A model generated the notes under the pieces. The model made no database searches. It saw only the letters and a list, made by a program, of their open reading frames with translations, and was not told the DNA's origin. The position numbers and the translations under genes were made by a program. Positions 597-53,724 of a DNA stretch of 64,000 nucleotides are shown here, one piece after another. Every line of letters starts with the position of its first letter. Positions within the stretch are counted from its first letter, which is position 1. Origin of the DNA: a virus (taxonomy: Duplodnaviria; Caudoviricetes); IMG/VR virus record IMGVR_UViG_3300014204_000185, positions 2,896-66,895 of that record; one strand, 5' to 3'.

Positions 597-1771
597 GAAA
601 ACTTGCATCAATTCAGAGAATAACGGCAATTAGACCCATCGACGGTGCGGATAAGATCGAATGCGTTTCCGTTCTTGGCTGGGAGTGCGTTGCAAGGAAG
701 GAAGAATTTCACATCGGCGATCTGGTGGTTTATATCGAAGTGGATTCAATAATGCCAGTAAGACCTGAATTTGAATTTCTACGGGAACGAAAATTCAGAG
801 TAAGAACCATCAAACTCCGCAAACAGATTTCTCAGGGGATTTGCTTCCCTTTGTCGATACTTCCTTCCGGCAAGCACAAAGAAGGCGATGATGTAACCGA
901 GATTGTTGGTGTCACTAAGTACGATCCGGAAGCCGTCAAAGAGGCATTAGAAGAGGCAAGACAAAACTCCATCAATAAAAACCGAGTTGACAAATTCCTT
1001 AAGAGATACAGGTGGTACAGGAGATATTTCACCAAGTCAGGAAAACGGGGGTGGCCGGAATTTATCAAGAAAACCGATGAGGAACGTATCCAGAATCTTC
1101 CGTGGATTTGCGATAAAGAACAAGGAACTGTCTTTACCGCAACAGAGAAATTGGACGGTCAATCGGGGACGTACGCATTGCTGAGATTACCGAAACGGTG
1201 GTGGCAGTTAAAGCACAGATACGAGTTCTTCGTTTGTAGTCGGAACGTACACCTACGGACAGAACACCCCTGCTCTTATTGGGAAATAGCAATAAAGCAC
1301 GATATCCGCAGAGTGTTGGAAAAACTGATTAGCGATCAGGAGTTTGTTGTATTTCAGGGAGAGATCATCGGGGAAGGAATCCAGGGAAACAAATATGGGA
1401 TTAAGGGGCGTGATTTTTATGCCTTTAATTTGGTTTATCCCTTTGGTAGGATGGAGCCAACCAGCGCGATGGTCGATCTATCATCTTGGGGGATCAAAAC
1501 GGTCCCCCGTCTTGAAGAATTAAAGTTACCCGGAACGGTAAAGGAATGTGTTGAAATTGGCAAGGGTAAATCAACGCTTGCAAACATACATAGGGAAGGG
1601 ATAGTGTTGAGGAATTACGAGAGGGGGCTTTCGTTCAAGATAATCAATCCGGACTTTCTTCTGAAGTACCAAGATGAAGACCAAGAATGGCAGGAAACTC
1701 ATTTCCCCCGCAACGAGAAAACCCCTTGTCGCAATTCCTCGACCATAAATACAGAAAAGGATATAGCATGA
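593..1771 (+). CDS. ATP-dependent RNA ligase, DRB0094/Rnl5-like family
   Basis: N-terminal MRKLASIQRI...GADKIE...GWECV...GDLVVYIEVDS domain; nucleotidyltransferase motifs EKLDG, FQGEIIG, FYAFN, EGIVLR, FKIIN. Confidence 0.88.
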   Translation: MRKLASIQRITAIRPIDGADKIECVSVLGWECVARKEEFHIGDLVVYIEVDSIMPVRPEFEFLRERKFRVRTIKLRKQISQGICFPLSILPSGKHKEGDDVTEIVGVTKYDPEAVKEALEEARQNSINKNRVDKFLKRYRWYRRYFTKSGKRGWPEFIKKTDEERIQNLPWICDKEQGTVFTATEKLDGQSGTYALLRLPKRWWQLKHRYEFFVCSRNVHLRTEHPCSYWEIAIKHDIRRVLEKLISDQEFVVFQGEIIGEGIQGNKYGIKGRDFYAFNLVYPFGRMEPTSAMVDLSSWGIKTVPRLEELKLPGTVKECVEIGKGKSTLANIHREGIVLRNYERGLSFKIINPDFLLKYQDEDQEWQETHFPRNEKTPCRNSSTINTEKDIA

Positions 1772-43598: not shown

Positions 43599-44666
43599 TC
43601 ATCCGATTTCCTTTCCGTGCTTGTCGCACTCATACAAAACTCGCCCCTCCCGGAAGGCGATTTTATGGGGATATTGCGGGTTGTCCCATTCGTATAGATC
43701 GACCACCCTGGTCTTGATCGCAACATATCTATCGCCCTTGTTCGATCTAAATTCATCGCAGAAATACGGGCGCGAACAGGCGTGAAACTTTCCCTCGCCA
43801 CACTCAGCGTTTCCCGGATTCCATGCCGGATGTGTGACTTTTGTTCCGATAGCCCACAGTGTTTCGTTTTTCGTTCCTTCTTGCGTTTTGAAATCGTGCG
43901 ATGTTTTTTTATAGAGGACGACGAATCCTTGCTTTTGCGGAACGCCTTCGCGCTCAAGGTATGGTTGTGGTTTTATGTTTTGGACATAGCAAGTTTTTTC
44001 TTTCTTGAATTTGAACTTCAGGTCGATGGGCTTGAAAAGAACAGAAAACCCGAATAGCGAAAGAGATTTGATGTCCGAGAATATCCTTACGGACACCGCC
44101 CCCCTCGCCTCGACAGAGGAATTTCCCCTCGCCTCGACAGAGGAATTTTCCATCGCCTCGACAGAGGAATTTCCCCACGCCACGACAGAGGAATTTTCCC
44201 TCGCCACGACAGAGGAATTTTCCCACGCCACGACAGATGAATTTTCCCACGCCACGACAGAGGAATTTTCCCACGCCACGACAGAGGAATTTTCCCACGC
44301 CACGACAGAGGAGTTTTCCCACGCCACGACAGAGGAGTTCCCCCTCGCCTCGACAGAGGAATTTCCCCTCGCCTCGACAGAGGAATTTTCCATCGCCTCG
44401 ACAGAGGAATTTCCCCACGCCACGACAGAGGAATTTCCCCTCGCCACGACAGAGGAATTTTCCCACGCCACGACAGAGGAATTTCCCCTCGCCACGACAG
44501 AGGAATTTTCCCACGCCTCGACAGAGGAATTTCCCCACGCCACGACGCGATACTTATAGCGCAACCTTACGGCTATTCCGATTCCACAGATTTTAATGAT
44601 TCCATCGAAATCTGCCTTGATTGCATCGATGTCGTTTTGTGTTTTTACGATTATTTCTTTCATCAA
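43599..44666 (-). CDS. octapeptide-repeat protein with conserved C-terminal domain
   Basis: about 18 units A[W/R/M][G/E]NSSV[V/E]; C-terminal CGEGKFHAC...KIAF. Confidence 0.8.
   Translation of the reverse strand: MMKEIIVKTQNDIDAIKADFDGIIKICGIGIAVRLRYKYRVVAWGNSSVEAWENSSVVARGNSSVVAWENSSVVARGNSSVVAWGNSSVEAMENSSVEARGNSSVEARGNSSVVAWENSSVVAWENSSVVAWENSSVVAWENSSVVAWENSSVVARENSSVVAWGNSSVEAMENSSVEARGNSSVEARGAVSVRIFSDIKSLSLFGFSVLFKPIDLKFKFKKEKTCYVQNIKPQPYLEREGVPQKQGFVVLYKKTSHDFKTQEGTKNETLWAIGTKVTHPAWNPGNAECGEGKFHACSRPYFCDEFRSNKGDRYVAIKTRVVDLYEWDNPQYPHKIAFREGRVLYECDKHGKEIG
44100..44547 (-). repeat. 24-bp tandem repeat, about 18 copies
   Basis: unit like GCCACGACAGAGGAATTTTCCCAC on + strand. Confidence 0.95.
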
Positions 44667-44939: not shown

Positions 44940-45158
44940 TCATGCTCGGATGCCTTCTTCGTATTTAATGGGATTACGAAAGCAGGGTGATCCACCGTTG
45001 GCAATCAGGTTCTTTGTCGCTTCAACCGTCCGGGGATTCTGTGTGAATCCGATCTCACAAAACGGTCCCTTGTTAGTTGTGGTGGGATTGGTTCTGAATT
45101 TACATTTCGTACAATTAAATGAGTGCATTGCGCGATTAAGTTCTTCGATGGTTTTCAT
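44940..45158 (-). CDS. small Cys-containing hypothetical protein
   Basis: AAAGGAGG RBS; CTKC. Confidence 0.55.
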   Translation of the reverse strand: MKTIEELNRAMHSFNCTKCKFRTNPTTTNKGPFCEIGFTQNPRTVEATKNLIANGGSPCFRNPIKYEEGIRA

Positions 45159-45315
45159 AACCCCTCCTTTAACATCGGGGGTGGCTACTACCACCCCCAT
45201 ACACAGACACTATTTCCGCCGCTCTTTACGGGAGCATGACCGTGACAATGTAATGTTCTTAACGATACCAAGGATAACTTCTCATTGCTTGCCGATGAAC
45301 CTCCTTTCGTTAGAT

Positions 45316-45657
45316 GTTGTCCGGCAGTTCAGGTCGCTCAGGTGCATGATCTCGCCCGACCCCGTTTAGGGGATTTATGGATTAGCAATCTGGCCTTCTC
45401 ATTCCCGATCTCGCCCATGCTACGCCTTAGTGACGCCTGCCCTCAATGCCGCCGGACAACTTTGGTGGCGGGGAATTGGATATTCAACGGTGATCCGAGG
45501 ATCGCGGATCTGCTTTGCTGACTTTCTCTAGTCGTCAGGTTTCCAAACCACCCGCCATTTTGAGTGGCATGGATACCGGGTTACGCAAATTCCCGGCGCG
45601 GTGTTTATCTCTGACAATACAGAGTTCTCTCTCCGAGGCGATTTCGTTTCCATGCCA
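45316..45657 (-). ncRNA. three consecutive stem-closed structured RNA domains (candidate small-RNA array)
   Basis: closing stems TGGCATGGA/TCCATGCCA, GGCGGG/CCCGCC followed by ACCA, GTTGTCCGGC/GCCGGACAAC; internal hairpins; no convincing ORF. Confidence 0.6.
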
Positions 45658-45661
45658 TTTA

Positions 45662-45755
45662 CGGTGCTGGTGCCGGGATTCGATACCCGGACGGCCGCCA
45701 GAGTCTGAATCACAAGCGCGGCCCCTCTGCGTCTTTACTCTTCCGCCACACCAGC
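45662..45755 (-). ncRNA. tRNA-like element with non-canonical anticodon region
   Basis: acceptor GCTGGTG/CACCAGC+A; D-arm GCG..CGC; T-arm CCGGG-TATCGAAT-CCCGG; no 7-nt anticodon loop; ends ACCG. Confidence 0.65.
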
Positions 45756-45776: not shown

Positions 45777-45956
45777 CTAATACCGCATCCTGCACGGAAC
45801 CCCGTTCTCGTAACCGTCACCACCATACATATCAAAGGCGTCTTCGGGGCTAAGTGACTCCACGCTATACCCGCGACTTGATTTTACGTCTTCTGCCCTG
45901 TCCTCTGCAACACCCCTTCGATTATTTCTCTCCATCATCGTGCATACGTCAGTCAT
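45777..45956 (-). CDS. small hypothetical protein, first gene of left early operon
   Basis: 59-aa ORF with GGAGG RBS, read by hand. Confidence 0.45.
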   Translation of the reverse strand: MTDVCTMMERNNRRGVAEDRAEDVKSSRGYSVESLSPEDAFDMYGGDGYENGVPCRMRY

Positions 45957-45995: not shown

Positions 45996-46024
45996 ATACT
46001 ACGCTCTTTTTAACTTCCTGTCAA
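45996..46024 (-). promoter_or_regulatory. sigma70-type leftward promoter
   Basis: TTGACA-17 bp-TAGTAT. Confidence 0.7.
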
Positions 46025-50470: not shown

Positions 50471-50512
50471 ATGGACACGCCTGGGCTATGAAATTTTATG
50501 GGAGCGGAGGGG

Positions 50513-51667
50513 ATGAAGATAATAAACGAGGGCGTGTTGGTTATAAAAAGTTGGTGCGAGAATCCCGAAGATGGGGCGGTTGAACAGGCAAAGAATCTCT
50601 CCCGGCTACCGTTCGCGTTCAGGCAGATTTGTCTTATGCCGGATACACATCAAGGATACGGAATGCCGATAGGTGGTGTTCTGGCGACGGACGGGGTTGT
50701 CGTTCCGAACGCGGTTGGGGTTGATATTGGGTGTGGAATGTGTGCCGTCAAAACATCGTTGACAGAAATATCCCTCGAAACTCTAAAGCGGATCATTGGA
50801 ACGATAAGAGTTGATGTTCCCGTTGGATTCAATAAACACGATAAGCCACAAGACGATGACCTAATGCCGAAGTCCCCGATGGGCGTAATCGCCAACAGGG
50901 AATACGAGAACGCCCGTAAATCGCTTGGAACTCTTGGCGGCGGGAATCACTTCATTGAGATCCAACGCGGGGATGACGGCCATATCTGGATCATGCTCCA
51001 CTCTGGAAGTCGCAATCTCGGTAAGCAAGTTGCTGATTACTACAACATGATCGCCATATCCTTAAACGAACAATACCTCAGTCGTGTTCCGAAAGAATGG
51101 GAGCTTGCGTTTCTTCCCATTTATGGCGAAGACGGTGAAGAATATTTAACGGAAATGCAATACTGTGTTGACTTTGCGTTCGTGAACAGACGCGCTATGA
51201 TAGACAAGATTCAGGCGGCTTTTATTGAGCACGTCGATCACGTCTCGTTTGAACCCATGATTAATATCGCCCATAACTACGCCAGAATAGAGCACCATTT
51301 TGGCAAGAACGTCATGATTCACAGGAAGGGGGCCACCTCGGCGCGTGACGGAGAGATTGGAATAATCCCCGGATCACAAGGAACGTCAAGCTATATCGTG
51401 CGCGGAAAGGGGAATCCGGAAAGTTTCATGTCGTGTTCTCACGGGGCGGGCAGGAAAATGGGGAGAAAACAGGCCGAAAGGACGCTTGATCTTGCCACGG
51501 AACAAAAACGACTTAATGATCGCGGCATCCTTCATTCCGTTCGAGGGATTCACGATCTTGACGAAGCATCTGGAGCATATAAAGACATTGGTGTGGTTAT
51601 GAAAGAACAGGAAGACCTTGTTGAAATCGTAACCAGACTTGAACCATTGGCGGTGATAAAGGGGTGA
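50513..51667 (+). CDS. rtcB: RtcB-family RNA ligase
   Basis: MPDTHQGYGMPIG, GVDIGCG, GTLGGGNHFIE, HSGSR, HNYA, HRKGAT, IPGSQG, SHGAGR, DEASGAYK. Confidence 0.95.
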   Translation: MKIINEGVLVIKSWCENPEDGAVEQAKNLSRLPFAFRQICLMPDTHQGYGMPIGGVLATDGVVVPNAVGVDIGCGMCAVKTSLTEISLETLKRIIGTIRVDVPVGFNKHDKPQDDDLMPKSPMGVIANREYENARKSLGTLGGGNHFIEIQRGDDGHIWIMLHSGSRNLGKQVADYYNMIAISLNEQYLSRVPKEWELAFLPIYGEDGEEYLTEMQYCVDFAFVNRRAMIDKIQAAFIEHVDHVSFEPMINIAHNYARIEHHFGKNVMIHRKGATSARDGEIGIIPGSQGTSSYIVRGKGNPESFMSCSHGAGRKMGRKQAERTLDLATEQKRLNDRGILHSVRGIHDLDEASGAYKDIGVVMKEQEDLVEIVTRLEPLAVIKG

Positions 51668-52852: not shown

Positions 52853-53098
52853 ATGAAAGAAACCTTCAACGCCTTAGCGACCGAACTTTGTAGGAGGGTT
52901 GGCGCTCCATATCCGTCACCGAAGCCGATAAATCCGACCGACTACACATGGACTCAGTCCGAAGAAGACGACTACCGGGAATGGGCGATTAATCTCTTGC
53001 GATCAAAGGGGCCGTTGCGACGGATGGGGAAGAAATACGTCAGCGCGGTTATGGACACATTTTTAGCTAATTACGGGTGGATGGTGGAGGGGAAATGA
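52853..53098 (+). CDS. hypothetical protein
   Basis: coupled ORF. Confidence 0.55.
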   Translation: MKETFNALATELCRRVGAPYPSPKPINPTDYTWTQSEEDDYREWAINLLRSKGPLRRMGKKYVSAVMDTFLANYGWMVEGK

Positions 53099-53724
53099 TG
53101 GAAAATATGGTTGAGTTTGTTGGATTTCCGAAGATTGTAAGACTGTCCAGCGAGGTGATCGTTACGGAAAAAATCGACGGGACGAATGCACAGATTTACA
53201 TTCCCGGCCCGGAAGATATTTTCCCGCCATACGGTTTAACTCTCGATAAAACGACACACGGAATGTCCCTGCTTGTGGGTAGCAGAACCAGGTGGATAAC
53301 ACCCGAATGCGACAATCACGGATTCGCACGGTGGGCTTATGACCACGCCGAAGAATTGGTTACTTGCCTCGGTCCGGGTCGCCACTTTGGGGAGTGGTGG
53401 GGATCGGGGATTCAACGGGGTTACGGACTACCGAAAGGAGAGAAAAGATTCAGCCTGTTCAATACGCTACGGTGGGGAAGTGACCGAGATATGGAGAAAT
53501 ATCCGAATGATAAGCCGGATTGTTGCCATGTGGTTCCGGTTCTTTGGCGGGGTGTTTTTGACACCCAACAAATCGAAATGGAATTAGCTACATTGAAAAA
53601 TTGCGGAAGTGTCGCGGCTCCCGTCTTTATGAAACCGGAAGGGATTGTCGTCTATCACATCGCCGGAAACATAGCGTTTAAGAAAACAATCGGTGATGAC
53701 GGAAATAAGGGGGACAACCGATGA
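53095..53724 (+). CDS. compact Rnl2-like RNA ligase (adenylyltransferase domain)
   Basis: TEKIDGTNA, SRTRWI, FGEWWG.GIQ, FSLFN, VPVLWRG, EGIVV, FKK. Confidence 0.82.
   Translation: MMENMVEFVGFPKIVRLSSEVIVTEKIDGTNAQIYIPGPEDIFPPYGLTLDKTTHGMSLLVGSRTRWITPECDNHGFARWAYDHAEELVTCLGPGRHFGEWWGSGIQRGYGLPKGEKRFSLFNTLRWGSDRDMEKYPNDKPDCCHVVPVLWRGVFDTQQIEMELATLKNCGSVAAPVFMKPEGIVVYHIAGNIAFKKTIGDDGNKGDNR

Follow-up and report, generated by a model that had tools for sequence, protein, structure and literature searches.

A putative cassette array of structured, partly tRNA-like RNAs in the leftward operon of a tailed phage

What is carried by 575 nt of DNA that lie inside a phage operon and hold no credible gene? 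The question was raised by a 64-kb stretch (hereafter the window) out of an IMG/VR virus record that spans 66.9 kb and has a completeness of 76%. The phage is tailed and has no close cultured relative, its portal protein being at best 33% identical to those of GenBank phages. A leftward set of genes starts at about 46.0 kb and a rightward set at about 46.1 kb, and the gap (45776-45201, minus strand) is located inside the leftward operon. A preliminary description of this DNA had proposed a tRNA-like unit followed by three structured domains, which are called D0 to D3 below. The stems, hairpins and repeats on which this proposal was built are all present on the minus strand, position by position. 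The features of the locus are as follows:

45996-46024, minus strand: sigma-70-like promoter TTGACA-17-TAGTAT, heading the leftward operon (10 of 12 consensus matches)
45777-45956, minus strand: 59-aa ORF with a good ribosome-binding site, adjoining the array on its upstream side (ORF list)
45662-45755, minus strand: D0, tRNA-derived module (fold and minihelix test)
45565-45657, minus strand: D1, conserved module (blastn and local alignment to contig L016)
45463-45557, minus strand: D2, conserved module (local alignment to contig L016)
45316-45460, minus strand: D3, 145-nt lineage-specific module with a 10-bp closing helix (inverted and direct repeats, fold)
45177-45198, minus strand: G+C-rich 8-bp hairpin without U tract, just ahead of the next gene's ribosome-binding site (inverted repeat)
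44940-45158, minus strand: 72-aa Cys-rich protein, first gene past the array (64% identical to a protein of contig L016)
46757-47218, plus strand: SpoU/TrmH-type SPOUT RNA methylase in the divergent operon, context (PF00588, E = 4.6e-20)
50498-51667, plus strand: RtcB RNA ligase, context (PF01139, E = 2.4e-110)
53077-53724, plus strand: RNA ligase of the Rnl-type adenylyltransferase class, context (PF09414, E = 6.7e-15)

The coding potential of the gap was considered at the outset. The claim that it has no credible ORF was borne out: its frames of 61-82 aa have no PHROG match, and the longest one (82 aa) has no relative among 5.8 billion proteins and is not called even in its own record. The sole homologue of the array that we found, a 1366-nt metagenome contig (L016), differs from the window by indels of -10, +2 and -2 nt, so that no reading frame is kept. 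A protein-coding reading is ruled out by these frame-breaking indels together with the lack of protein relatives.

The gene neighbourhood was then described. The promoter that had been claimed is indeed found at 46024-45996 with a spacing of 17, and the array is located 240-680 nt behind it, ahead of the operon's genes; the site is a consensus match only, promoter-like sites being as numerous in the region as in its shuffles. The 59-aa ORF has no PHROG or Pfam match and no IMG/VR relative. On the other side of the array, the hairpin at 45177-45198 gave only a weak match in Rfam, to the AniS terminal hairpin (E = 0.96), and may act as a processing barrier or as a 5' stabiliser. It is followed by the 72-aa protein, for which no Pfam or PHROG family was found, and further on the leftward operon encodes an AAA_23 ATPase, a PDDEXK nuclease and RecT. 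The genes of RtcB, the RNA ligase and the SPOUT methylase are all less than 8 kb from the array. The divergent operon also encodes DNA methylases, a radical-SAM/DUF5131 protein and a PAPS-reductase-like protein; these last two and two DNA methylases are located between the SPOUT, RtcB and Rnl genes. The true tRNA genes of the phage lie 40 kb from the array, and a search for a CCA-adding enzyme in the phage found none.

The apparent modularity of the region was compared with chance. The minimum-free-energy fold of 481 nt consists of four tiled, end-closed domains. Whether such folding exceeds that of shuffled sequences, a point raised by the preliminary description, received a divided answer: the fold of the whole 481 nt reaches only z = -1.5, with the opposite strand about equal, whereas a four-domain chain with as many stem pairs as observed occurs in only 2 of 150 shuffled windows. 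When closing stems of at least 7 bp are the sole demand, 24 of 150 shuffled windows contain a four-domain chain, and with 6-bp closing stems, chains of at least four domains recur inside the coding DNA of the window. Folded singly, with boundaries chosen post hoc, the domains have z values of -1.5 (D0), -3.2 (D1), -3.3 (D2) and -2.5 (D3). Inverted repeats are equally present on both strands, and there is no direct repeat longer than 12 nt in the region. Taken alone, the tiling is within the reach of chance and rises above it only in part; the non-random signals are the minihelix of D0 and the conservation of D1 and D2.

D0 resembles the tRNA model of Rfam (RF00005) in several respects. Its acceptor stem is a perfect 7 bp (GCTGGTG/CACCAGC) with both strands present, not merely the 3' part of a tRNA, and it is accompanied by U8-G9, a 3-4-bp D stem, and a discriminator A followed by CC. 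The T arm, which abuts the 3' acceptor strand, has a 5-bp stem (CCGGG/CCCGG) and a loop TATCGAAT with a TCGAA core. The order of these elements is that of a normal tRNA, not a permuted one, and both ends of D0 lie in the acceptor stem. The differences from RF00005 are equally clear: the T loop has 8 nt instead of 7, the D loop lacks GG, and the position of a 5-bp/7-nt anticodon arm is taken by a 6-bp stem whose loop measures 19 nt, or by other, weak pairings. In a test for acceptor/T-arm minihelices, only tRNA-Gln and D0 pass in the window, for 0.017 expected per shuffled 64 kb. RF00005 itself gave no match to D0 even at E<=10 in 311 nt, nor did ARAGORN with default settings; ARAGORN detects D0 only when relaxed (-ps85 or -ps80), with a score at noise level, and 9 false matches then appear in the window as well. 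The tRNA-like unit proposed at 45755-45662 therefore holds for its acceptor/T-arm minihelix and fails for the Rfam model, default ARAGORN and the anticodon arm. Because the minihelix passes while the anticodon arm and the tRNA models fail, D0 is considered tRNA-derived and not a decoding tRNA. No homologue of D0 was found, contig L016 having only 101 nt ahead of its first module, and a search with an exact D0 25-mer gave no match.

Conservation could be assessed by comparison with L016. The gene adjoining the array has 65% nucleotide identity in the two phages (69%, 81% and 46% at the three codon positions) and 64% amino acid identity, which provides a scale for the modules. D1 aligns with L016:182-266 (blastn E = 2e-9; 86% identity over ungapped columns; local-alignment z = 25) and exceeds the second codon positions of the adjacent gene, while D1 and D2 are both far above its third positions. 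D2 aligns with L016:102-177 at 80% identity over ungapped columns (z = 5.5), and none of 500 shuffles reaches this score. For D0, D3 and the spacer, local alignments to L016 all have z < 1.3. D1 and D2 are mutually unrelated (z = 0.2); D1 precedes D2 in the window but follows it in L016. These comparisons support the view that at least D1 and D2 are separate cassettes under purifying selection.

The structure of D1 is organized around its ends. The stem given by the preliminary description is TGGCATGGA/TCCATGCCA, with hairpins CTCTG/CAGAG and CCGGG/CCCGG, and the closing helix has 9 bp, UGGCAUGGA/UCCAUGCCA. Three blocks are conserved between the phages: AAAUCGCCU, GGAGAGAAC and AAACACCGCGCCGGGAA. 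The hairpin CUCUG/CAGAG is variable and is swapped as a unit in L016. The 3'-proximal hairpin GCCGGG/CCCGGU, which adjoins the closing helix, shows a G.U to G-C change between the phages, a pair that is kept on the minus strand only. RNAalifold on the two D1 sequences found no double-sided change and only invariant pairs. A covariance model of D1 (R1) scores the two known copies at 118.6 and 102.7 bits.

D2 has a closing helix UGGCGGG/CCCGCCA, then an encoded ACCA, and contains hairpin 1 (CUGAC/GUCAG) and hairpin 2 (GAUCCG/CGGAUC). Its inner helix UUGGA/UCCAA is found in the window only, both strands being absent together from L016. In L016, hairpin 2 reads GAUGG/CCAUC, that is two double-sided changes between the conserved flanks GCAGAU and AUCACC, as aligned by hand; the automatic D2 consensus, for which MAFFT misaligns D2, also has no double-sided change. 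The proposed search for covariation in homologues thus yielded one homologue and two covarying pairs, judged by eye in a single D2 hairpin and absent from the automatic consensus. The ACCA behind D2 is probably fortuitous, because it reads AGAA in L016. The ends of the modules have common features: D1 and D2 in both phages, as well as a third domain of L016, begin with UGG after an A-rich linker and end with CCA or UCA. Encoded CCA, and a U1-A72 pair at the start after an A-rich leader, are features of the real tRNA-Asn and tRNA-Gln of the phage; D1 and D2 begin likewise.

D3 contains the repeat GGGCGAGATC (also given as GGGCGAGAUC) twice and has no significant similarity to L016 (z = 0.7). 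At its position L016 has a different domain of 182 nt (272-453), closed by an 11-bp helix with two G.U pairs, and a further end-closed domain is present at about 469-596. Hairpin 2 of D2 and the direct repeat of D3 contain a cluster of five GATC sites (45513-45489 and 45416-45348, minus strand); they are not kept in L016 and are probably by-products of the palindromic arms.

Further homologues were looked for by several routes. L016 was found by aligning relatives of the 72-aa protein, for which 11 metagenome loci and one MAG contig were retrieved. The array is present upstream of the 72-aa gene in L016 only; six other readable loci have protein genes there, and four more contigs begin within about 100 nt of the gene, so that their upstream region cannot be judged. 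The MAG contig has the 72-aa gene without the array. In two of the loci (L079:1148-1951 and L022:2568-2960) the 72-aa homologue is preceded by genes for pentapeptide-like repeat proteins, in which DNA repeats of 15-30 nt, nearly identical to one another, form long runs. The 72-aa protein itself occurs in about a dozen metagenome contigs, always close to the start of a gene string, and has four invariant Cys and an invariant NPRTV...NLIANGG block. It had no match in GenBank phages by tblastn, and the array had none in GenBank phages or E. coli genomes by blastn. IMG/VR was searched through five neighbouring proteins: relatives of the DUF7666 and SPOUT proteins were non-syntenic, the 59-aa, 72/86-aa and 149-aa proteins had no relatives there, and the whole records of five relatives contained no copy of the array. 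A pattern built from the D1 blocks gave 52 matches, which is the chance expectation, and none was confirmed by blastn; that of D2 gave two matches, both in coding DNA. Model R1 run on 27 loci, the MAG and 120 MAG relatives found the two known copies only, and blastn on 400 genomes of the MAG's phylum gave no further copy.

Correspondence with known RNA families was examined in parallel. Rfam scans of the window and of L016, at gathering thresholds and at E<=10, gave only noise, and ARAGORN found no tmRNA at default or relaxed thresholds. The preliminary description had matched the domains to no family, and these scans, in which GOLLD, ROOL, HEARO, YrlA and tmRNA were included, agree with it. 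A single large phage RNA of the GOLLD/ROOL/HEARO type was rejected for want of an Rfam match, and the swapped module order also argues against it. A ToxI-like array of Type III antitoxins was rejected as well, since there are no near-identical tandem units: D1 and D2 are unrelated and long direct repeats are missing. Resemblances to hammerhead, CsrA-sponge, SRP-like and 16S-3'-end-mimic elements, noted by eye, are not kept in L016 or have no Rfam support.

Functionally, the nearest counterparts would be stable small RNAs from the T4 tRNA cluster and the C4/CI RNAs released by RNase P. T4 species 1 and 2 (rnaC/rnaD) are non-decoding structured RNAs of about 120-140 nt whose function is still unknown; their ends pair in an acceptor-like stem, and they are co-transcribed polycistronically and cut by tRNA-processing enzymes. 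The present array is likewise phage-encoded and has acceptor-like end helices, here predicted from sequence. T4 species 1 and 2 sit among eight real tRNA genes, whereas here the true tRNA genes are distant and the array follows a small ORF heading an mRNA operon. The C4 RNA of P1/P7 and the CI RNA of P4 are antisense RNAs excised by RNase P from a longer early transcript at an acceptor-like helix, and the 7-10-bp helices and A-rich linkers of the predicted array would fit such processing. However, C4 and CI are single RNAs with known complementary targets, whereas no base-pairing target of the conserved D1 and D2 blocks was found inside the window and the Rfam C4 model is unmatched. The YrlA/YrlB Y RNAs of bacteria and phages, partners of Ro60 (Rsr), are tRNA-mimicking ncRNAs, often at least two per precursor and linked to RtcB; in M. 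smegmatis, YrlA has an acceptor stem of 7 bp, serves as an RNase P substrate and has CCA added (Chen et al. 2014, PMC4201824). Phage tRNAs that overcome tRNA-cleaving defences (PMC11555353; PMC10802454) are also tRNA-shaped and phage-borne, and the phage studied here has RtcB, an RNA ligase and a SPOUT methylase. Those tRNAs decode and have intact anticodon arms, unlike D0, which has none, and D1-D3, which are not cloverleaves.

Several other explanations of the gap were weighed. It could be a cis-acting structured leader that stays in the early mRNA, where it would shield 575 untranslated nt from Rho and nucleases, provide put or nut/boxA antitermination, or control downstream translation. 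Its position behind the early promoter and ahead of the operon genes fits this, as does the G+C-rich hairpin directly before the next ribosome-binding site. In both phages the first module is directly preceded, on its 5' side, by a candidate boxA-like string (GGUUCUUUAAAAA at 45769-45757, minus strand, and CGCUCUUUAUA at L016:91-101). These strings could mark NusB/E-type antitermination across the untranslated array, but they are short and AU-rich. A single leader with a fixed layout is hard to square with the swapped order of D1 and D2 and would have no use for the tRNA minihelix kept by D0, and model R1 found no D1-like copy behind the divergent promoter, unlike what is seen with put elements; we regard a cis leader as unlikely. 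A second possibility, which we hold to be improbable, is that the region is functionless wreckage of a former tRNA cluster, made of decaying tRNA pseudogenes and chance hairpins. Against it stand the helix-preserving changes and the identity of D1 (86%, for 81% at second codon positions), with D1 and D2 far above the 46% of third positions; moreover, phage genomes rarely retain 575 nt of dead DNA within an operon. Such decay would nevertheless account for a tRNA-derived D0 that fails all tRNA models, for the lack of conservation of D0 and D3, and for a tiling and an overall fold energy that chance can reach.

The link between YrlA and RtcB suggests another reading, in which a ring protein (Ro60, DUF2828-vWA or similar) would bind the modules as Y-RNA-like partners, with the UGGC/GCCA helix as a docking handle; its gene would belong to the host or to the 24% of the phage genome that the record lacks. 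The array layout, the tRNA mimicry and the presence of RtcB in the same phage recall rsr-yrlBA-rtcBA (PMC4201824), and a terminal UGGC...GCCA is common to D1 and D2 in both phages. Since the record is only 76% complete, a ring-protein gene could lie outside it; within its 66.9 kb, TROVE (PF05731) and DUF2828 have no match, so that the Ro60 gene expected of a Y-RNA locus, on the same strand and no more than about 4 kb away, is missing. The GNCGAAN0-1G motif (PMC4201824) is absent from 45776-45201 on the minus strand, neither an ACAGCAA nor a YACACGCA handle was found in the array, and the YrlA model (RF02553) has no match at E<=10. In addition, D0 has normal and not permuted topology, and RtcB is 4.7 kb off on the other strand. 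With no Ro60 or DUF2828 gene in the 66.9-kb record and no Y-RNA motifs in the array, the Y-RNA reading was set aside as quite improbable. Least probable of all, to the point of being very doubtful, is an element acting at the DNA level: inverted repeats serving as protein-binding sites, an origin, or an attP with a tRNA copy. The equal presence of the inverted repeats on both strands, the five GATC sites in D2 and D3, and the fact that the DUF7666 gene, about 1 kb downstream, is where several related contigs stop, are in line with it. On the other hand, the G.U pairs and the G.U to G-C change work on minus-strand RNA only, iterons are absent and the GATC sites are not kept in L016. The attP version was rejected, as the record has no tyrosine integrase, and D0 has both acceptor strands and not just the 3' part of a tRNA.

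The explanation that we favour, with somewhat better than even confidence, is that the gap is a co-transcribed cassette array of structured RNAs, probably with tRNA-like maturation, whose processing, expression and function we infer. Transcription from the early promoter would run through the 59-aa ORF into the four modules, in each of which the 5' and 3' ends would pair in an acceptor-like helix of 7-10 bp, with A-rich single-stranded linkers in between. D0 would descend from a tRNA whose acceptor/T-arm minihelix was retained while its anticodon arm ceased to be usable; D1 and D2 would represent two RNA families, unrelated to each other and under selection, that pass between phages as cassettes; and D3 would be an addition specific to the lineage. 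During early infection the modules may be freed by the host's tRNA-maturation enzymes, giving stable RNAs some 90-145 nt long. In this scheme RNase E would act in the A-rich linkers and RNase P at the acceptor-like helices, and the trimming of the ends would fall to 3' exonucleases. The proposal of several novel structured RNAs is thus upheld in so far as the region is non-coding and modular, has conserved D1 and D2 and matches no catalogued family; it is not upheld for D3 and the ACCA, which are unconserved.

More tentatively, RNAs released from this array might act in trans as protein-binding mimics or decoys in a conflict over tRNA damage and repair, to which the RtcB, RNA ligase and SPOUT methylase of the phage could also belong. 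A decoy or anti-defence function is purely conjectural. In its complete form, the idea would be that D0-D3 are host-matured tRNA mimics or decoys that work with RtcB, the ligase and SPOUT against tRNA-cleaving or RNA-sensing defences, and that D1 and D2 are new exchangeable anti-defence families; we consider this combination rather unlikely. Research on phage anti-defence has so far been concerned mainly with proteins and, lately, with whole decoding tRNAs. If the modules are released as stable RNAs, non-decoding, cassette-like relatives of tRNA would join the toolkit of phages that carry RNA repair, and D1 and D2 would represent two new RNA families with clear sequence signatures for metagenome-wide searches, starting from the two members currently known.

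Two minor observations concern the surroundings of the array. Four independent IMG/VR contigs (L002-L005), which match the window at 43599-44666, all stop some 90 nt into their DUF7666 gene homologue, and this shared end point lies roughly 1 kb downstream of the array; it points to a common assembly break or genome end. The second observation was made on an unrelated phage contig, L014, where a tRNA-like gene (1633-1713, plus strand) is located 30 nt upstream of a SPOUT methylase homologue (1744-2160). A tRNA-like gene beside the SPOUT homologue was seen in only one of the eight SPOUT loci. This gene has a good acceptor stem, a D arm, a canonical T arm and an aberrant anticodon arm with a short stem and a loop of about 18 nt, which is the same design as that of D0, itself about 1 kb from the SPOUT gene of the window.
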